Origin: Chiloscyllium plagiosum
Lineage: Eukaryota
Length of the DNA: 50,000 nucleotides
Assembly: GCF_004010195.1 (NCBI RefSeq)
Contig: NW_025214745.1
Coordinates: 1-50,000 of the forward strand
Direction of reading: 5' to 3'
The notes beneath the pieces were generated by a model, which did not search any database, was not told where the DNA came from, and saw only the letters and a list, made by a program, of their open reading frames with translations. The position numbers were made by a program, and so were the translations under genes. Each line of letters starts with the position of its first letter. The stretch's first letter is position 1. Positions 14,340 to 50,000 of the stretch are shown in pieces.

Positions 14340-15850
14340 ACACAGACGTTACGGCAGAGAATGGTGTTATTTGACCCATCATGTTTGCACCAGCTCTTCA
14401 AATGAACGCATGATTGAGTGTTGATCTCCTGCTTCCCCCCATAGCATTGCACATTAGTATTAATCACAATAATTATCAAATCCCCTCCTGAATGCTTTTT
14501 CCATTGAACATGGATCGACATCACATCCAAGTGTTCTCTAACTGCTTGTCGTGTAAACAAATTCTGACCTACATCAATATTGCTTCTTTCGTACATCACA
14601 TTAAATCTGTGCCTTTTCATTTTTGTTCCCTTTATGCGTGGGAGCAGACTTGTCCGGTGTACATTCGTCAGCATGTCTATGAGTTTTAAAAAATCCATGA
14701 GATCTCCTCTTCGCCACCTTCTTTCCAACGATTTCAGTCTGACTTCATAACTGAAGTTTCTTATCCATGAAACCATTCTCGTAAATCACTTCATCGTCCT
14801 TTCCAACGTGATCACATATGTCCTATCATGTGACAAACAGAAATGTGTACAATACTCCAGTTGAGGTCTAACATGCGTTTGATACAACTTCAACCTCCTT
14901 GCTCTTGTACTCTACCTCAATCCTTATAATACGAGGAATACTCCATGCTTTACTTATGTTTAATGTCCTGTCAAATTTAATAATCTGTGCAAAAATATAA
15001 ATTAGTCCTTCCCTTCAATACTCCTTCAGATTTTACAACATATTTTGTGTTGTCTATTAATGTTCTTGCCAGCAAACTGCATTGTCTCTTGCTTTTCTAC
15101 GTCGACCTTCATGTATTATCTCCCCACTCACTCGAGCAGCTTGTCCATTTCTTTACGGAATTCTCCAATTTCCTTCAGCCCTGTGTCTACTGTAAACTTT
15201 GAAGTGGTTCGCTGCACACCAGCCCTACATCATTCATACGTATCAAAAAGAATGAGGGGAACAAAACTGACTCCTGTAGAACTTCACCGAAAGTCGTCCT
15301 CCAGCCTGAAAAAAAAAATTCTGAAATTCCTCCTGGTTTCCTATCAGTCAGTCGTTGTTTTTATCCATACTGATGCAGTCATTTATATTCCAAGAATGAA
15401 CGAATGCATAAATGAATTTACTGTCATACATATCAAGGAAAATACAGTGATTTCCTTAAGCTCTGTGTCTACTTTAAACTTTGAAGTGGTTCGCTGCACA
15501 CCAGCCCTACATCATTCATACGTATCAAAAAGAATGAGGGTAACAAAACTGACTCCTGCAGAACTTCACCGAAAGTCGTCCTCCAGCCTGAAAAATAAAT
15601 TCTGAAAATTCCTCCTGGTTTCCTATCAGTCAGTCGTTGTTTTTATCCCTACTGATGCAGTCATTTATATTCCAAGAATGAACGAATGCATAAATGAAAT
15701 TACTGCCATACATATCAAGGAAAATACAGTGAAACGTGCTTCGTAGCCCAATCCATACACATTTTCCTCCTCGATATTGTACTTTACCAGTGACTGTTTG
15801 TCGTTTGCTCTTTCTTCACAGTTTCAATCCTCTTTCCAGTGTTCAACCAG
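14340..15850 (-). mobile_element. Old CR1 LINE ORF2 3' half containing a tandem duplication
   Basis: FSYEVRLKSLERRWRRGDLMDFLK; AACATGCGTTT/CAATACTCCAGTTGAGGTCTAAC corresponds to VRPQLEYC on the minus strand. Confidence 0.7.
15169..15732. repeat. Tandem duplication, 2 x 282 bp
   Basis: 15169-15450 and 15451-15732 are near-identical (TTTCCTTnAGC...GAAAATACAGTGA). Confidence 0.95.
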
Positions 15851-15927: not shown

Positions 15928-17480
15928 GAGTCAGAGTCATAGAGATGTACAGCAACTTGTCCATACCGACCAGATATCCCAACTCAATCTCATCCCACCT
16001 GCCAGCAGCCAGCCTATATATCCCTGCAAAGTGTTTCTATTCATATACCCATCCAGATGCCTTTTAAATGTTGCAATTGTACGAGCCTCTACCAGTTCCT
16101 CTCGCAGCTCATTCCATACACGTACCCCCCACTGCAGGAAAACATTGCCCCTTATGTCTCTTTTACATCTATCCCCTCCCACCCTAAAACGATGACCTCT
16201 AGTACAATATCTCCAGCCCACTCCAGAGAAGAGACATTGTCTATTTATCCTATCCATGCCGCTCATGATTGTATAACCATCTAGAAGGTCTCCCCTCAGC
16301 ATCCAACGTACCAGGGAAATCAGCCCCAGCCTATTCAACCTTTCGCTGTAGCTCAAATCCTACAACCCTGGCAACATAGTTGCAAATCTTTTCTGACCCC
16401 ATTCAACTTTTAAAACACCTTTCGGATAGGAAGGAGACCAGAATTGAATGCAATGTTCCAAAGCTGGCCTAACCAGTGTTCTTTCGAGCCGCAATATGAC
16501 CTCCCAACTCTGGCCCTCAATATTCTGACCAGTAAAGGAAAGCATACCAAACGCCTTCTTCACTATCCTTTCTACCTGCTCACTCCAATTTCAAAGAGCT
16601 ATGAATCTGCACTCCAAGGTCTCGTTGTTCAGCAATACTCCCGAGGACCTTACCATTATGTGTATAAGTCCTGCTAAGATTTGCTTTCTCAAAATGGAGC
16701 ACCTCGCATTTATCTAACTAAACGTCATCTGCCTCTTCTCAGCCCATTGGCTCATCTGATCAAGATCCCGTTTTATTCTGAGGTAACCTTCTTTGCTATA
16801 CATTACACCTCCAATTTTGGACTCATCTACAAACTTACTAACGTCCCCCTCTTATGCTCACGTTGAAAAAATTATATAGATGATGAAATGTAGTGGACCC
16901 AGCACTGAGCGGCACGGTGGCACAGTGGTTAGCACTGCTGCCTCACAGCGCCAGAGATCCGGGTTCAATTCCAGACTCAGGCGACTGACTGTGTGGAGTT
17001 TGCACGTTCTCTCCGTGTCTGCGTGGGTTTCCTCCGGGTGCTCCGGTTTCCTCCCACAGTCCAAAGATGTGCAGGTTAGGTGAATTGGCCATGCTAAATT
17101 GCCCGTAGTGTTAGGTAAGGGGTAAATGTAGGGGTATGGGTGGGTTGCGCTTTGGCGGGGCGGTGTGGACTTGTTGGGCCGAAGGGCCTGTTTCCACACT
17201 GAAAGTAATCTGAACCTTGTGGCACTCCACTGGTCACAGGTCTCCAGTCTGAAATACAACTTTCCACCACCACCTTCTGACTGCTACCTTTGAGCCAGTT
17301 CTCTATCCAAATGGCTAGTTCTCCTTGAATTCCATGACATCGAAACTTGTGAGCAAATCACCGAACTGTGGGGAAACTTGGAGAACGCCTTACTGAAGTC
17401 CATATACATCATGTCCGCCACTCTGCCCTCATAAATCCGCTTTGTTCTTTTTTGTAAAAAAGTTAATCGGTTTCCCTTAA
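15928..17480 (-). mobile_element. Younger 5'-truncated CR1 LINE (RT to 3' tail), interrupted by a SINE
   Basis: YMDFSKAFSKFPH, SVLGPLHFIIYI, KKAFGMLSF...LVRPALEHCIQFWSP, SYSERLNRLGL...RGDL, and a CTCTATGACTCT-type tail at about 15930. Confidence 0.9.
16907..17211 (+). mobile_element. tRNA-derived SINE (HE1/V-SINE-like)
   Basis: Full-length copy that splits the CR1 GVPQG/SVLGP motif. Confidence 0.93.
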
Positions 17481-19894: not shown

Positions 19895-20027
19895 ATTTAG
19901 TGACAGTCACTATGAAGAGATTTTCCGAAAATGAACTTTCAGGTTTTTGTTTTCTGTGATGTCCCTCGTGTTTCCTTCAACCTCAGTGCAAGCAACCCTC
20001 AGCAACAGGAAGACTTGTCTTTGATTA

Positions 20028-20380
20028 CCAGGTACGTGAAATCCGCCAGCTCGAACTCCACTCTGCTCCCTCACAAGGCCACCGTCTTTGTCACTCCCAG
20101 GTACGCGTAGCTCTCCGGCTCTCACTGCACTCTGCCCCCGCAAAGTGTCACCATCTCAGTGACTCTCAGTTACGTGTAATCCACCAGCTCCAACTTCGCT
20201 CTGCTCCCTTACAGTCTTCCCGCATCTGTGGCTCCCAGGTCCGTGTACTCCTCAAGTTCCCACTCCACTCTGCTCACACACATATTTTCTGTCGCTGTGA
20301 CTCCCAGGTATGATAAGGCCTCAACCTTCAGTGCTAACTCAGATCCTCCCACTTTGCTGTTGCAATATTTCCCAGGTCTG
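20028..20380. repeat. 69-bp tandem repeat, about 5 diverged units
   Basis: YCAGGT/TCAGTT anchors at 20028, 20097, 20166, 20235, 20304 (exact 69 spacing) and 20372; shared CACTCTGCTC core. Confidence 0.85.
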
Positions 20381-23988: not shown

Positions 23989-24285
23989 TGTCCCGGGCGA
24001 TAGCTTTACAGAAGCTTCATCCACAGGTGGCATTTATAACAAACAGCAGTCTAATCCTCGGGTTCATCTGCAGGTGGCATTTTTAATCAACCTGTTCAGA
24101 CGTTGCAGGTATGAGACCCTCGTTTGAAAATGACTCGAAGCAAAATAAACTATCACATAGATTTAAAAGCTGTCCCGGGCGATAGCTTTGCAGAAGCTTC
24201 ATCCACAGGTGGCATTTATAACAAACAGCAGTCTAATCCTCGGGTTCATCTGCAGGTGGCATTTTTAATCAACCTGTTCAGACGT
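23989..24285. repeat. 115-bp direct repeat flanking a 66-bp copy of 22813-22878
   Basis: 23989-24103 matches 24171-24285 (1 mismatch seen); the intervening 24103-24168 matches 22813-22878 (2 mismatches seen). Confidence 0.95.
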
Positions 24286-33852: not shown

Positions 33853-34560
33853 TTGGGAGCCTCCTGTGAAGCGCTTCTGTGATGTTTCCTCCAGCATTTA
33901 TTGTGATTTGTATCTGCCGCTTCCAGTTGTCAGTTCCAGCTGTCCGCTGCAGTGGCCGGTATATGTGGTCCAGGTCGATGTGCTTGTTGATTAAATCTGT
34001 GGATCAGTGCCATGCCTCTAGGAATTCCCTGGCTGTTCTCTGTTTGGCTTGTCCTATAATAGTACTGTTGTCCCAGTCGAACTCATGTTGCTTGTCATCT
34101 GAGTATGGCTACTTAGGATAGCTGGTCATGTCGTTTCTGACTGTCAGTTCAGAAATTTTTTTGATGTATGGTAGTGTGGCTAGTCCTTTGGGTTGTGACA
34201 TGTCCTCATTCCGTTGTCTTTCCCTTAGGCATCTGTTGATGAAATTGCGGGGGCATCCGTTTTTGGTGAATTCATTGTATAGGTGTTCTTCTTCCTCTTA
34301 TTGCAGTTCTGGTGTACTGCAGTGTGTTGTGTCTGTTTTGAAAAATGTCTTGATGCAACTTCTTTACATAGGACAAACAGGAAGACAGCTAAGGATCCGC
34401 ATCCGTGAACACCAACTCGCCACGAAACGACCTGACAAGCTATCCTTAGTATCCACACACGCAGATGACAAGCAACATGAGTTCGACTGGGACAACACGA
34501 CTATTATAGGACAAGCCAAACAGATCAGCCAGGGAATTCCTAGAGGCTTGGTACTCATCC

Positions 34561-34660
34561 GACGGACCCGGAGGGTCCCGTCTTTGCGTGTTCTTTTGGA
34601 AGGAGAGACTCACACTGGCAACTATGATTAGACGCAGAACCCTCCGGGTCCGTCTTAACA
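34561..34660. mobile_element. 100-bp insertion with 16-bp perfect inverted repeats and 10-11-bp target duplication
   Basis: GACGGACCCGGAGGGT (34561-34576) / ACCCTCCGGGTCCGTC (34639-34654); GTACTCATCC at 34551-34560 and 34661-34670; absent from the mirror arm. Confidence 0.85.
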
Positions 34661-41429: not shown

Positions 41430-44211
41430 GTTAGTTTGGATAAAGGGACTGCAGTTGAGATACTGAGCAAGATACTTTCAGCAGCACGAAAATGATATTG
41501 TAAGAATTTTTGAGAAAAGGGAAGAAAGAACTGTGGATTTATTGACTAAATGACCAAAAGAATGTACCTTCGATATACGTTTGTGCAATGAGATGGGAGG
41601 GCTAATTAAGACCTACAAGCCGAAAGGTAAATCTAAAAATAGGAACCAAAAGAGTGTTCAGGAGATGGAAATACTGAAAATGTTCAGGAAGGAGGGCGAT
41701 GAATTCAATGTAGCTTGTCAGTCACCCGTGGTGACTAGCAAAGCTGCAAAAAGAACAAGCTGAGCAGTTACAGGAAACAGTAAAGCAGCAATCAGTCCCA
41801 CTTTATACCCCGATGTGGAGGATTTCAATAGACCTCCTCCCTACTCGAATGAAGAGGCATTGAAGCAGTGTCAACTAATAAAGGGAACAGTAGAAACAGA
41901 GGGACAGGTAGAATGGGACGGAAGTGCGGAAGACAAAAATGAACTGAGGGAAAGAAGAGAAAGAGCGAAAAGGTACAGGCAGTGGCAAACAGAAGCTAGA
42001 CAACGAGAGAAAGAAAAGCTGAAACATGAGATTAGTGTGCTGCGTGGGCTCAGAGAACAAAACGCAATTGAGGAATACTCATGGCGATATGAAAAGGGGC
42101 TGAAGAGAAAAGAATTGAAGATGATGCAGAGGAAGCAGAAAGCGATGATGAGAGACAAGGAAGAAAACGCCCCAGTTCCGAAAGAATGGGAGGAATTGGA
42201 AGTAGCTTCGGCCTCAGAGCCCGAGGGGCAATTATTGAGAAGTAGTACAGGTAAAGGGAAAAAAGGGCCAACAGGGAAGGATGCTACAATTCCTTATAAA
42301 AGAGTGGAGAAACCGACAATGCATTCGTTGGGGAAATCAGAATCTGGAACGGCTGACGAATGTTCTGCCCAGTTTACACGTGGGAGCAGGAAAGTGGTTC
42401 GGGGCTTTTGAAGATGAAACCACAGGGCGATTGCTGGCTACAGGAGACTTGAAGGCACTGCTGGTGAATTTGGTAGGTCTCCCGAACTTAAAGGAAATAA
42501 TAGTCTGAGCCCGTTTGAAGAAAGCGGCAGGTAATTTATTGATAGATGGGGTCGTGATTGATCGAGTGAGACAGAATGTTTGGCAGGCCTTAAGAGACTG
42601 TTCTCCACTTAAGACGGATTGCCAGGCTTTGAGAGGGGATCCACTGGTAGAAAGGGAAAACACGATTGCTGACATTGAGAAGCAAATAATAACGTGCAGG
42701 CTGGAAACAGAGTCAGGCATAGAAACTAATCAGTTGCTGACCACAATGCTCCAGACTTATACATATAATAGTAAGGTCTTCGGGAGGTTTGCTGAACAAA
42801 GAGACCTTGGACTGCAGGTTCATAGCTCCTTGAAAGTGAAGTCGCAGGTAGATAGGATAGTGAAGAAGGCGTTTGGTATTCTTCCCTTTATTGGTCAGAG
42901 TATTGTGTACAGATTTTGGGAGGTCATGTTGCGGTTGTACAGGACATTGGTTAGGCCACAGTTGGAATATTGCCCGCAATTCTCGTCTCCTTTCTATCGG
43001 AAAGATTGTGTGAAACGTGAAAGGGTCATAAGAGATTTACGAGGATGTTGCCAAGGTTGGAGTATATGAGCTATAGGGAGAGGTTGAACAGCCTGGGACT
43101 GTTTTCCCTGGAGTGTCGGAGGCTGAGGGATGACCTTGCAGAGGTTTACAAAATTATGAGGGGCATGGATAGGTTAAACAGACGAAGTCTTTTCCCTGGG
43201 GTCGGGGAGTCCAGACCAGAGGGTATAGGTTCAGGGTGAGAGGGGAAAGATATAAAAGAGACCTATTGATCAACTTGTTCACACAGAGGGAGGTACGTGT
43301 ATGGAATGAGCTGCCAGAGGGTGTGGTGCAGGCTGGTACAATTGCAACATTTAAGAGGCATTTGGATGTGGATGTGAATAAGAAGGGTTTGGAGGGATAT
43401 GGGGCGGGTGGTGGCAAGTGGAAAAAGATTGTGTTGGGATATCTGGTCGGCATAGACGGGTTGAACCGAAGGGTCTGTTTCCATGCTGTCCATCTCTCTG
43501 ACTCTATGACTCTAAATTCTATCATTGAGGCAATGCCCTCCCAATTCAGGTCAAGACTGCAGGAAGTGGTGGCTCTGACATCATCAATGAGCCATCAGGA
43601 AGTTAGAAGTCATGTAGCTCATGCAGTTGAATGGTTTCGAAAAAAACAAAGACAACCCCTCTGAATGGCAGTAGGAGGTGCAAGTGAAGCAGGCGCAAAG
43701 CAGCTCGAAGTGCTTAAAAAGAAAGAAAAAGAGAAGGCTAAAAAGGTGCTGCCAGTAAGAACCGAAACAGTAATCAACACTGGTGTGAAGCAGGTGCCCA
43801 CGCAACGGGTGTCCTGTCAAGTAGCCAGACAGGGGCCAGAAAGTCATATGCCAGGAATGGACGTTTTTAGGGAAGCTTTTCCGCAGGTGATGTATCCAGG
43901 GCAGGGCAGATCTAAACAACAACTGAATCAGAACTGCGATCTCCAAGGTTAGAGACGTTTGAATGGAGGACGTAGGTGCACGATAAATAATCAGGCTCAA
44001 GGTGTGTGGGGTGGTGGGGAGCGGGCGAGGGTGTTCGGCAAAAATGATGTGCTGAGGAGGCCTTCAACCGGGCGACTTTAGCAGGAATTGCCCTTATTGG
44101 GCAAGGCCCTCTCTGCCCGACAGCGGGCCTAGACGGCGGGAATCTCCAGTGCCTACTTCCCAGATGCCTGAAAGACCAGCTGAACCTATTAACCCACACG
44201 GGATGTGCTAG
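41430..44211 (+). pseudogene. gag: ERV gag
   Basis: *PKECTFD (WPxxGTF matrix-like, about 41551), LYP and PPPY late-domain-like motifs (about 41800-41845), decayed zinc knuckle C*GGLQPGDFSRNC (44050), ending at TAG 44209-44211. Start approximate. Confidence 0.75.
42752..43513 (+). mobile_element. 5'-truncated CR1 LINE inserted in gag
   Basis: EQRDLGLQVHSSLKV...LVRPQLEYC...RRLRDDL, tail CTCTGACTCTATGACTCTA; gag reads LLTTML before and NSIIEAMP after. Confidence 0.92.
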
Positions 44212-47200
44212 GGATGCCCTGAAATCCTGGATGGAAAGGGGCGCTACTGGGCAGGAGCATGGGAGGCTGATCAAGAACCAGTAATTCAGGTTAATATGCA
44301 AGGGCGGCAGACGCCGGTCATGATAGATACTGGAGCTACGTGCAGTTGTGTCCAGCCACTATCTGCCTCTTACCTTCCCATGTCAAGTAAATTTGTTTCA
44401 ACAATAGGGTTCTCAGCGAAATTACAGTTAACTCGATTTACAGCTCCAGTAGGATTAGACATGCAACGTAGGGAGATCGTTTGCCAATGTTAGTGTGTAA
44501 AGATGCAACAACTAACTTGTTAGGTAGGGTTGCTTTACTACAGTTAAAAGTAAGATTGGAATGCAAACAGCAAGGCTTGGCCGTAGAAAAGGCCAATACA
44601 CAATCAGTGATGCAAGAAGTAAAATATGTTTATGTTTATTGGATCGGGGATATCGCAAGTGATACTCAACACATTTGGTGAATGTGGGAAGCAGAAGTAT
44701 TGACGATGTTGACTCATGCAAGACAACTCAACTCTGAGCTACACTTTACAGTGATATTTGATGAGTCTCAGAATGAAGTGATAGATAGTCAGTGGCAGTG
44801 GGAGGTCACCACTCCACAACATTTGAGAAGTGAAGCAATTGTATTAGGGGAGCAGGGAGTGATTCTGCAAATAGAGAGAAATGCTTTCCTGGAAAAGTGG
44901 TATGGCCCGTGCCAGGCGCCGCACCGCATGTAACCTTACTGGTGAATAAGGGATATCAATCTAAAGACTTCAGATCTATAGCCAGGGATGTAGAAACAGT
45001 TAAGGAATGGCATATTGTCACGATAGGGATTTGGGATACCGGGAATAGCAGCTATATTAACATCCTCGCATGCTGCAACCTGACAGGGAATCCGAAGGAA
45101 GTCACAATAACACCCCAGCGGAGCGTGCCAGTGACAGCGGAGGAAGATGATTAATATGGTAATGAGTAATAGGAAATATTTCTTGCCACTTTGTGAGAAT
45201 GAAATCAGCTAGCCCAGTGGAAATAGGTTGAAAATAGGAGCTATTCTGCCTAGGAGACCGCAGTATCCTTTAAAACCAGAGGCAGCAGAGAGAATGCCAA
45301 CAACAGTATAAAGATTGCTGAAGGCATGGGTACTTAGAAAATTGTAGTACCTGCATATTCCTTTGTTACCAGTTTTAATGGCAGACTGGTCTAAATGGAA
45401 ACTTGTACATGATTTAAGAGCAGTAAATGAGGTAGTGGAGGATTGTCCACCAGTTGTTCCGAATCCGCACACCCTGCTAACTAATGTTCCCCCACAGGCA
45501 GCTTGGTTCTCGGTAGTATATTTATGTCCTGCTTTTATTTAGCATTCCCCTAGCACAGCTCAGTCGGCATCTGTTTGCTTTTGCATAAAAAGGTCGGCAT
45601 TACACTTATACAATAATGCCCCAGGGTTTTAACCGTACACCGCAAGTATTCAACAAAGGTAAAAATCAGAGTAGAAAGTATGTTGATACACTATGTTGAT
45701 GATTTGCTTGACTGTTCAGATAGTCAGGAACAGTGTGAGCGAGATACCCTTTTAATCTTGAAAAAAAAAACTGTCGGCGGGTGGGGGGGTGGTGGGCGGG
45801 GGGAGGGTGCATAAGGTCTCGATGAAAAAACCTGCAGATTTTGAAAAGAACAATTCGAGTATTTCGGGAGGCCGGTTGCGAAGGGCACAAAGGCAATTGC
45901 AACAAGTCATATTGAAGCAAATGTTAAAATTCCTGGGCCAGAGACAGGACGGCAAACGATAACATTTCTGGGCATGACAGGATTTAGCTCAGATTGGATT
46001 GAGGAGTATGCTGAGATTACAGAACCCTTAAGGAATAGGATGCCGGAGGTCGGACATTCATGTTTACGGGATGCTTTGCAGTGGAATGAAGATTCAATGA
46101 CATTTTTCAATATCCTTAAACGTTTTCACCTTTATGCGTCAAACAGGTGAACTTATGCAGGAGGCGTGTCAGGCAGGACCAGACCCAGTATAGGACAATC
46201 GAATTGGAATCTTGCTCACAGCCGTGTTCAGCTCAGTTGAGTGAAGGTAAGGCATTGATGGCGGCCTGTGAAAGCTGACAGTTATACTGATTCGGCTTAT
46301 GCACATGGTGTATGCCACCTATTTTTGGCAGTGAGGACGCAAGGAGGCTTTAAGACGAAAAACAGGGATCCCATACAACACTGCCAGCAGTTTCTAGAGT
46401 TGACGACGGCAATGATGAAGCTAAAGGCATGAGCTACCATTAAGTGCTAAACAAACAGAAAAGTAGTGATATGGTGAATATGGGTCATCAGACAGCGGAT
46501 GAAGTGGGTAAGTTAGCTTCGAGTAGTTCTTCATCTATTATTGCGCCTCAGATGTAGATCGACCCAGAAGCGACGACAAATGACCTTATTGAAATACAGA
46601 GGAGGGCTACCCTGGCTGAGCAAACCCTATGGAAGCAGAGGCGTGTAAGGCAGAATCAAGAAGGTTTATGGACAACAGAGGAAGGTTTATTGGAAGCGCC
46701 CACATCTTTGTTGACAATTCTTACATCAAAGGCGCATGGATTAGATCTCTTCGCACGAGGGGAAGTGCTGAGAAAGATAAAGCGCAATGGTTTCTGCCTA
46801 CTATACCTGCAGGTTCCAGTGGACGACGTATTGCCACAATATGATGTGTGTGAACACAGAACAATATTAGGAAGGGGAGAACGACACCTTTAGGAAAAAT
46901 ACCAGTGTCTGAATGGCCATTTAAGCATTCAGTAATTGACTGCGTGGACATGATAAAGAGGTTGAGGGTGAAAAGGTTCATGTTCGTGGCAAATGATAGG
47001 CTTAGCAGATGGGTAGACGCTGTCTCTTCCAAAATGCAGGAGCTGCGACAGTATTGAAATTTCTGACGAATGAATTTATCCCAAAGTTTAGTATACCGTC
47101 CGAAAACAGTTCCGAAAATGGGTCTGCCTTCATTCACAAAGTAGGTAAGCTGGTATTGCAGTCTTTGAGAATCAAGAAGAGGTTTGGGTGCTTGTATCAC

Positions 47201-47690
47201 CCACAGCCACACGGAGTGGTGGAAATAATTAATGGGATATTGAAAGCCTAATTAAATGAGATCTGCGCAAGCACCAAGCTTAATTGAGTTGATTGAATGC
47301 TTCTGGTGCTAATGATTTATCGCAAGCAGACTAATCACGTGACCAATGTAATACCACATAAGATGCTCACAGGTAGGACTATGTCAGTGCCCAAGTGGAG
47401 AGGCCACTACAAAGGGCCTAGTTTGGAGCAGATAAGCTTAGAACTTAAGCACGAAATGCAGTAGCTAACTGTATACATGAGACTAACCATATTCAGGAAA
47501 CACAAATGGAACAAGGACCTCTCAACAAGGAAAACTCTATTAGCCCGGGGACTGGGTGTAAGTGCGGGTTTTGCAAAGATGCTTGAATTAGCCGAGGAGA
47601 CAGTGACATTTCATGCTGACTAAGACATCACCTACCCCCATCCAAGTGGAAGGACGACACACATGAAACCAACTTAATCATTGTACTCAA
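44212..47690 (+). pseudogene. pol: ERV pro-pol (protease, putative 2H domain, RT, partial RNase H, integrase)
   Basis: MIDTGATCS (protease); QYPLKPEA, LVHDLRAVN, VPNPHTLL, MPQGF, YVDD at 45692-45703 (RT); YTDSAYAHG (RNase H, about 46284); IDCVDM, SENGSAF, YHPQPHGVVEIINGILK (integrase). Many stops, frameshifts and deletions. Confidence 0.9.
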
Positions 47691-47799: not shown

Positions 47800-49330
47800 C
47801 CAGGCAAGGTGCACATGAAGTTCTTGGGTATACTGATCATTCCACAAATGATAGCGATGGCGATGTGGAGCATAGCTCGTCTCCTGGCAGCTGAGATGGG
47901 GAAAAGATGAGGGACGACCTAATAACCCCCTCTCTGATACAAGGCTTGCACACTCAAAATTGGAAACCATTAACTTGTCAAACCTCGACTGGAATGCCAG
48001 GGTCACTCAGGCTGGGAGACAAAGACGTATTAGAAGTGCAGATCTTGTTGCACTAATATGTGTACATGCCCGTGAAAGTCACTGGTATCAATGGACAAAC
48101 GTCACGGCCTTAATTTTGGCTGGACAGGACTGTTTCTTGTGTACTAATGCGACCCCCTCGGACTATGTTGTCCGTATGCCCTATACCTCGACCACCTGTA
48201 CTTAATGGCATTTGCATTGACGAACTCTTAACCTGGATGATTCATCAACTTACATGCAATCCCATTGCCCCTTTTGGTGCCTCCTAATACAGGCCTCGAC
48301 GATGTTGTGGGCAGGCAGCAACTCCAACGATGGTGTAGCTATAGTACGCCGGGGTCCAACAGTAAGACTAATTACACGTTCCCCATGGCTGCTTTCAGGA
48401 CATGGGAACGGTTGAGATTTCAGTGCTTCAATAAAAATTGTTCGACACCAGTCGGCTATTTTAGGTCTTTGAGAGACTATGATTGATCTCGAGGTGGACA
48501 CCACATTTGGGACTCTCATAAATTCAAAATGCATCCAACTAGCAGATACTTGGTTGCTGTGTGGTAAGAAATGAAGTGGCAGCTGTGCCCAGGAAATGCT
48601 CCTACACTACGTAGTTATATCACAACACGCACAGTTTGACTCTACGTCACAGTCAGATTTGTGCTGAACTATGTGAAGGTGTCTCCCTGATTCAACGACT
48701 CGGATTGATAGCATGGGACCGCCAAGAGGTATTCCTAATGAATTTAAGGCCTTCAATGAGATTGCAGCAGGATGAGAGGCTCTTATCACAGTTAAATGGG
48801 TTAGGAAGAATGCAGAATGGATTAATTATATTTATTACAATCAGCAGAGATTTATCAATTATACTGACAGTGCCGCGGTGGCCTTGGCAGAACAAATTGG
48901 TTGCCACTACCAAAATGACACGGCAAAACAGACAGGCTTGACATTGGATACTGATGGAAAAAGGCCGGGTTAGTGTCATGTTTGGGGAGTATTGCTGTAC
49001 CTTTATACATAGCAACACTAGCCCTGGGCGACATTTACTAAATCAAGCAAAACTAAACAATCTAAGACAGGACGTAAAAGATAACGTGGGGTTTTGGTCA
49101 GCAGGCATTTGTTTGGTTGAATAATGTATTAGGACCTCGGGGAGTAGGATTTGTCAAGATTGATGTTATTATAGGTGCGGTTTTACTTGTTGTCATCTTC
49201 GTCTTTTGTTGTGGCTTACCTCTTATTAAGTCTTCTTTTAGATTGCATCACTACACAGAAAGTTGTGCTCATTTTAGTTACCCCAGAAGTACTTCCTATT
49301 CTGATAGAGCCCCACTGCTCCGCTATTATG
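47800..49330 (+). pseudogene. env: ERV env (gamma-type)
   Basis: WYQWTNVTA...DCFLC (CxxC), WLLCG, IDSMGPPRGIPNEFKAFNEIAAG, WINYIYYNQQRFINYT, immunosuppressive-like QNRQA*HWILMEKG, SVMFGEYCC (decayed CX6CC), TM VIIGAVLLVVIFVFCC. Confidence 0.88.
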
Positions 49331-49464
49331 ATCTGACAACTGCCACGGTGCAACGAATATGTCCACGAGGGGCCATGGATGACACTGCTGAAAATTGTGT
49401 GGGTCCGAGATTGTGAAGAATCTTGGGATTTTAATTTTCTATTCTGGTAAATGGGGGAAAGGTT

Positions 49465-50000
49465 CCACTACCTCCAAATAGACCCCATCACCAAGGATAT
49501 ATTTCCCTCCCCTCTCCTATCAGCGTTCCGGAAAGACCACTCCCTCTGCGACTCCCTCGTCAGGTCGACACCCCCCACCAACCGAATCTCCACTCCCTGC
49601 ACCTTCCCCTGCAACCGCAAGAAATGCAAAACTTGCGCACACACCTCCCCCTCACTTCCCTCCAAAGCCCCAAAAGATCCTTCCATATCCGTCGCAAATT
49701 CACCTGCACCTCCACACATCATTTGCTGCATCCGCTGCACCCGATGTGGCCTCCTATACATTGGGGAGGCAGGCCGCCTACTTGTGGAACGTTTCAGAGA
49801 ACACGTTTGGGACACCCGCACAAACCAATCAAAGCGACCCGTGGTTGAACACTTTAACTCCCCCTCCCACTTCGCCAAGGACATGCAGGTCCTTAGCCTT
49901 CTCCATCGCCAGACCATGGCAACACGACGCCTGAAGGAAGAGCACCTAATCTTCCACCTCAGAACCCTCCAACCACAAGGGATGAATGCAGATCTCTCCA
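49465..50000 (+). mobile_element. Penelope-like element, Cys-rich linker + GIY-YIG endonuclease (runs off window)
   Basis: FPCNRKKCKTCAH...FTCTSTHIICCIRCTRCGLLYIGEAGRLLVERFREH...VVEHFN. Confidence 0.9.

Follow-up and report, generated by a model that had tools for sequence, protein, structure and literature searches.

2H phosphoesterase domains have been described in fish retroviruses, among them walleye dermal sarcoma virus (in a passage of PMC9503650, citing Mazumder 2002), and the epsilon-like endogenous retroviruses (ERVs) of ray-finned fishes sometimes encode a CNPase (in a passage of PMC4977317, citing Basta 2009). A retroviral 2H domain is hence not new, having been noted in both of these groups, and the two sources bear out what the original prediction for the locus analyzed here had said about the occurrence of these domains in retroviruses of fishes. 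Among viral 2H enzymes, coronavirus NS2, avian poxvirus PDE, and phage Acb1 are aimed at immune messengers (passages of PMC11410667, bioRxiv 10.1101/2025.08.21.671373, and PMC13577500). These passages contain no word starting with "retrovir" or "Retroviridae," so that, judging from this part of the viral 2H papers, the retroviral branch looks overlooked. The literature searched, mostly open-access main text, yielded no experiment on the function of a 2H domain from a retrovirus and no report from a cartilaginous fish, and the supplementary 2H lists of PMC11410667 and bioRxiv 10.1101/2025.08.21.671373 could include a retroviral entry; the first half of a paper on elephant-shark ERVs (PMC4422223) mentions no such domain.

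The locus described here lies in a stretch of 50,000 nucleotides of Chiloscyllium plagiosum DNA, the whole of which was analyzed and is called the window below. It is an old and broken ERV copy in which the segment between protease and reverse transcriptase (RT) is, on the evidence of a predicted structure and of homology, very probably what is left of a CNPase-type 2H phosphoesterase, a module of about 170 residues in the Pol of an ancestral fish retrovirus that has since decayed. Walleye dermal sarcoma virus and the ERVs of ray-finned fishes are likewise fish retroviruses with a 2H phosphoesterase, which is called CNPase there. The published 2H-bearing viruses come from bony fishes, whereas the relatives named here are stingray ERVs and the copy in the window is broken. 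The domain of the walleye virus presumably occupies the same position in Pol.

Layout of the Provirus

The features of the provirus, all on the forward (+) strand, are the following.

41550..44200, +, gag-like region, broken; recognized by position and composition, with its label taken from position
44263..44600, +, retroviral aspartyl protease, with DTG at 44326 and a frame break near 44480 (Pfam RVP, E 3.2e-4)
44610..45150, +, module of Pol, about 540 nt in three pieces, very probably a CNPase-type 2H phosphoesterase in decay, by homology to stingray ERV proteins
44742..44750, +, first H-x-T motif, LHFTVIF (His codon at 44742, Thr at 44748-44750), aligning with the first motif of the stingray protein P0006
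44927..44935, +, second H-x-T motif, PHVTLLV (His codon at 44927, Thr at 44933-44935)
45196..46147, +, RT, 58-61% identical by tblastn to the relatives P0006 and P0004, with YVDD at 45692
46558..47460, +, integrase remnants, with a weak Pfam rve match (E 0.16) at 47006-47248
47876..49413, +, putative env-like remnants, labeled from position and motifs; close to their end, a hydrophobic stretch resembles an anchor

These features follow the order gag-pro-pol-env, the protease being identified by Pfam, the RT by tblastn, the integrase by a weak match, and gag and env by position only. The RT is broken by stops and frame breaks and gives a weak match to Pfam RVT_1 (E 0.2), and its similarity to the relatives begins, by tblastn, at 45196-45225. 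No gag family was found by the Pfam scan of the gag region at its cut-off, and none of the three env-like pieces scanned matched Pfam. A flanking pair of direct repeats that could correspond to LTRs was not found in the window, although old insertions and the end of the window may hide one.

Several other elements lie in and around the provirus. Within the gag-like region there is a dispersed-repeat fragment (42754-43463), 79% identical to 15953-16670 on the opposite strand, whose translation we take to resemble the end of a CR1/L2-type LINE. Only about 400 nt (46150-46500) separate the last RT piece from the integrase pieces, and this short gap, together with what we assume to be a short RNase H-like motif near 46285, suggests that the connection/RNase H region has been partly deleted. 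The open stretches at 49451-49999 (-) and 34122-34631 (+) presumably resemble the terminal part of Penelope-like retroelements, with its GIY-YIG endonuclease; the first of these borders the env-like remnants at their end, where it may stand in place of the 3' LTR. Elsewhere in the window there are a short tandem array of four copies at 69-nt spacing (20018-20310), a 282-nt duplication (15168-15731), and a 115-nt repeat at 182-nt spacing (23989-24285).

Motifs and Breaks in the Module

Both motifs are located exactly where the original prediction had placed them (44742 and 44927). The two His codons are 185 nt (61.7 codons) apart and in different forward frames, which corresponds to one net frame break between the motifs, placed at about 44903-44924 by tblastn with an uninterrupted relative. 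The earlier description of some 62 codons with one frameshift in between therefore holds for the interval itself, but it overlooked an in-frame stop inside the module (44679-44681), the frame break in the protease, and a further stop at 45152. It is evident from the stop at 44679 and the frame break between the motifs that the copy is dead, as had been claimed; it is a pseudogene and makes no enzyme.

By itself the motif pair is weak evidence and could be due to chance, since six-frame translation of the window contains 148 instances of the loose pattern H-x-[T/S]-hydrophobic, or 0.0015 per codon. A stricter pattern, chosen post hoc, occurs three times in the window, with two of the occurrences in the module. 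The main support for the 2H assignment comes from the relatives and not from this pair.

Relatives in Stingray

Protein searches retrieved three uninterrupted relatives, P0001, P0006, and P0007, all of them proteins of the stingray Hypanus sabinus (P0001 was one of 62 candidates, and the three together were 3 of the 95 in a second search). Protease, module, and the start of RT are in a single frame in P0001 and P0007, and so are module and RT in P0006. In the module, the window shares 39-47% identity with the stingray ERV proteins, and this part is less conserved (about 45%) than the protease (about 55%; against P0001, 41/72 and 18/34 residues identical) and the RT pieces (57-77%). P0007 is labeled at its source as "E3 ubiquitin-protein ligase Siah1 isoform X1," although its content is that of a retroviral protease, a 2H module, and the start of RT, which makes a mis-annotation likely.

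Conservation of the catalytic positions, a check proposed with the original prediction, turned out to be partial. Both histidines are kept in the three full-length relatives, at a spacing of 61 residues in P0001 and P0006 and of 54 in P0007, but the full H-x-T pair is found in only one of the three (P0006), a Thr having been lost in each of P0001 and P0007, and the fragment P0005 is without the second His. Five matches were obtained in a search of a representative library, namely P0001, the fragments P0004 and P0005, and P0002 and P0003, the last two of which, being repeat proteins, were discarded as spurious. A separate search for long Pol relatives retained none of its 95 candidates, which is weak evidence, as the method itself cautions, and scans of viral and metagenome contigs with the relatives as queries recovered no loci.

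Predicted Fold

The ESM Atlas model of P0006 (mean pLDDT 0.66) has chordate CNPase as its best structural match, with residues 6-170 aligned at a TM of 0.80 over 165 residues. It is followed by tRNA-ligase cyclic phosphodiesterases (TM 0.66-0.69) and LigT/2'-5' ligase clusters (TM 0.52-0.59), one of which has AKAP7_NLS in 14% of its members. Among the ten matches listed for this model, nine are 2H-labeled, cyclic-phosphodiesterase-like, or similarly sized viral proteins without a name; the tenth is a PolyA-polymerase cluster with no family over the aligned part. Using features instead of structures, P0006 scored 0.95 against tRNA-ligase cyclic phosphodiesterase clusters, and P0001 found the same families at 0.82-0.83, a value that we use as a lead only. 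The Atlas structure and feature searches count as one source, with both query and targets being predictions. The 2H fold would thus be that of the predicted structure of a relative, P0006, carried to the copy in the window by homology (39-47% identity). In this form the 2H assignment of the original prediction is supported by the model and can be sharpened to the CNPase type.

Vertebrate CNPase (PF05881) resembles P0006 in this fold and in having two H-x-T motifs; unlike it, the module is without an N-terminal kinase-like domain, is embedded in Pol, and is too diverged for the Pfam profile. Indeed, Pfam CNPase did not match P0001, P0006, or P0007 at E <= 10, nor the window pieces at E <= 1, so that we term the module CNPase-like by fold and do not file it as a member of the family. 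The tRNA-ligase cyclic phosphodiesterase domain (PF08302), to which the top feature match belongs, occurs in proteins that differ from the module in their ligase or kinase partner domains.

No family library assigned a 2H family at its cut-off. PHROGs and NCBIfam placed none of six proteins in a 2H family, the window pieces alone had no 2H family match in Pfam, the PDB sequence search returned none for the motif-2 piece, and that of P0001 contained only proteases among the best 60 of 223 rows. The best PDB sequence matches of the P0006 module were seven chains of aprataxin, a protein of a different fold (E 0.044-0.5), which we set aside as chance matches, 2H being the fold indicated by the structure search. 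Our own AlphaFold models were uninformative, with a pLDDT of 29.8 for P0001 alone and of 33.4 for a five-row alignment headed by P0006. Foldseek with the latter against viral and PDB libraries gave nothing at E <= 0.001, a result counted neither way, and a row for walleye Gag-Pol at E 4e-3 was discounted since it rests on this uninformative model.

Similarity to Phage Acb1

The phage protein Acb1/gp57B (PF23474) has an H-x-T pair in register with that of P0006. A tblastn search of P0006 against 50,697 phage records matched two records, both of them the Acb1/gp57B gene of a single phage, at E 5e-3, and in the alignment (29% identity over 143 columns) both motifs are in register. Motif 1, through P0006, aligns with His44/Thr46 of phage Acb1, and motif 2 aligns with His113/Thr115, the spacing of the histidines being 61 in P0001 and P0006 as against 69 in T4 Acb1; Acb1 is absent among the structure matches listed above. 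The phage gp57B genes (L001:283-747 and L006:58-516) are annotated as "RNA ligase" in RefSeq, and L001 is an Acb1 by Pfam (E 5e-55). Searched with the motif-1 piece of the window, the phages gave ten records at E 2-9, which is chance.

The Pfam Acb1 profile matched P0006 with E 0.14 and 12.4 bits, below the cut-off of 27. We also built an Acb1 profile from nine other Acb1 proteins, excluding the one matched by tblastn. When the 673 six-frame pieces of the window were ranked with this profile, the motif-1 piece came first and the motif-2 piece third. A read-through of the window bridged with X scored 8.4 bits. One in 1000 shuffled sequences did as well, as did 20 in 1000 when the motifs were kept in place; for the score of P0006 the corresponding counts were 0 and 2 in 1000. 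With hhalign, the probability of a match to Acb1 was 55 for the relatives and only 3 and 5 for the window pieces.

State of the Copy and Its Family

The ERV belongs to a multi-copy family, as in two DNA runs with the same species label 303 of 364 and 307 of 359 aligned reads were <90% alike to this copy. The module stop and the frame break are absent from many of those reads. Among the best-supported 40 of 286 read differences, one affects the middle residue of motif 1 but both His and both Thr codons are spared, a sparing that, coming from these 40, is suggestive only. From about 2 in 100 of one RNA run, a single read aligned, which does not speak for expression.

Proposed Role and Alternatives

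The role that we regard as the most likely one, and as somewhat probable in our analysis, is that of a virion enzyme, released by the protease, which would act on RNA ends or nucleotides by opening their 2',3'-cyclic phosphates. The retrovirus would have acquired the module from its host, as the catalytic domain encoded by a CNPase-like gene. In retroviruses in general, the products of pol are packaged as part of Gag-Pol and released by the protease, and the position of the module suggests that it may likewise have been packed into virions within Gag-Pol and then freed by the viral protease. Its two H-x-T motifs would, by the chemistry of the family, have converted 2',3'-cyclic phosphates to 2'-phosphates, either at RNA 3' ends or in 2',3'-cyclic nucleotides. 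In this way RNA ends left by metal-independent host nucleases could have been healed, e.g., with a free 3'-OH restored near the reverse-transcription complex, or else the activity may have served to clear cyclic-nucleotide breakdown products. Such hydrolysis to 2'-phosphates is the activity listed first for the 2H family (in a passage of PMC5283653), and, within the part of PMC9503650 that deals with viral 2H domains, RNA-end processing is proposed for some of them and 2-5A breakdown for others.

The same 2H fold might instead have been re-aimed at immune second messengers, either 2-5A (OAS-RNase L) or cGAMP (cGAS-STING), toward which the original prediction leaned and which we consider unlikely. 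The only sequence-level 2H matches are to Acb1, and the DNA that retroviruses produce in the cytoplasm is open to sensing by cGAS, both of which count in favor of this possibility. Viral 2H enzymes have also been re-aimed at such messengers repeatedly and independently (passages of PMC11410667, bioRxiv 10.1101/2025.08.21.671373, and PMC13577500), and OAS is listed for elephant shark (in part of PMC6307210). However, the Acb1 match is weak, covers the shared core, and comes from a search that covered the phage collection only, no Acb1 cluster appears among the ten structure matches listed, and the P0006 model ranks CNPase (0.80) far above the LigT/AKAP7-bearing clusters (0.52-0.59), so that antagonism of this kind is not favored by the predicted fold. 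Moreover, some teleosts appear to be without OAS (a passage of PMC2852836), yet the domain is reported from viruses of ray-finned fishes (a passage of PMC4977317). A broader version of this idea, in which fish retroviruses, those of cartilaginous fishes included, captured CNPase as a virion-delivered antagonist of cGAMP/2-5A immunity or of host CNP, is in our view comparably doubtful; if true, it would be a retroviral antagonist of a kind that, in the literature surveyed, has been shown only for other virus families.

It is still less likely that the module was mainly non-catalytic, serving to bind RNA within Pol or, as a decoy, to compete with the host CNP that restricts retroviral assembly by binding Gag. 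In humans, interferon induces CNP, which prevents the assembly of HIV-1 through Gag binding (in a passage of PMC3832489, citing Wilson 2012), and the loss of Thr in two of the three full-length relatives and of His in one fragment would fit such a role, but those relatives are decaying genomic copies, each of which has lost a different residue. Besides, with no more than 39-47% identity between them, the window copy and P0006 still have both complete motifs in common, a retention suggesting that catalysis was under selection. Finally, a non-2H spacer with motifs arising by chance, for which one could cite the frequency of the loose motif (148 in six frames), the lack of a Pfam 2H family at cut-off, and the weak aprataxin match, is very improbable and largely refuted for the relative by the TM of 0.80 to CNPase over 165 residues, the feature score of 0.95, and the independent in-register match to Acb1.

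Significance

The analysis adds evidence that viruses of cartilaginous fishes carry the module too, and that its predicted fold would be closest to host CNPase and not to the known immune-evasion phosphodiesterases. An old broken copy is a poor entry point, and the question of the substrate is beyond what this copy can answer. The substrate would distinguish a retrovirus that heals RNA ends from one that destroys immune messengers, and the activity of the module might also illuminate the role of CNPase itself.
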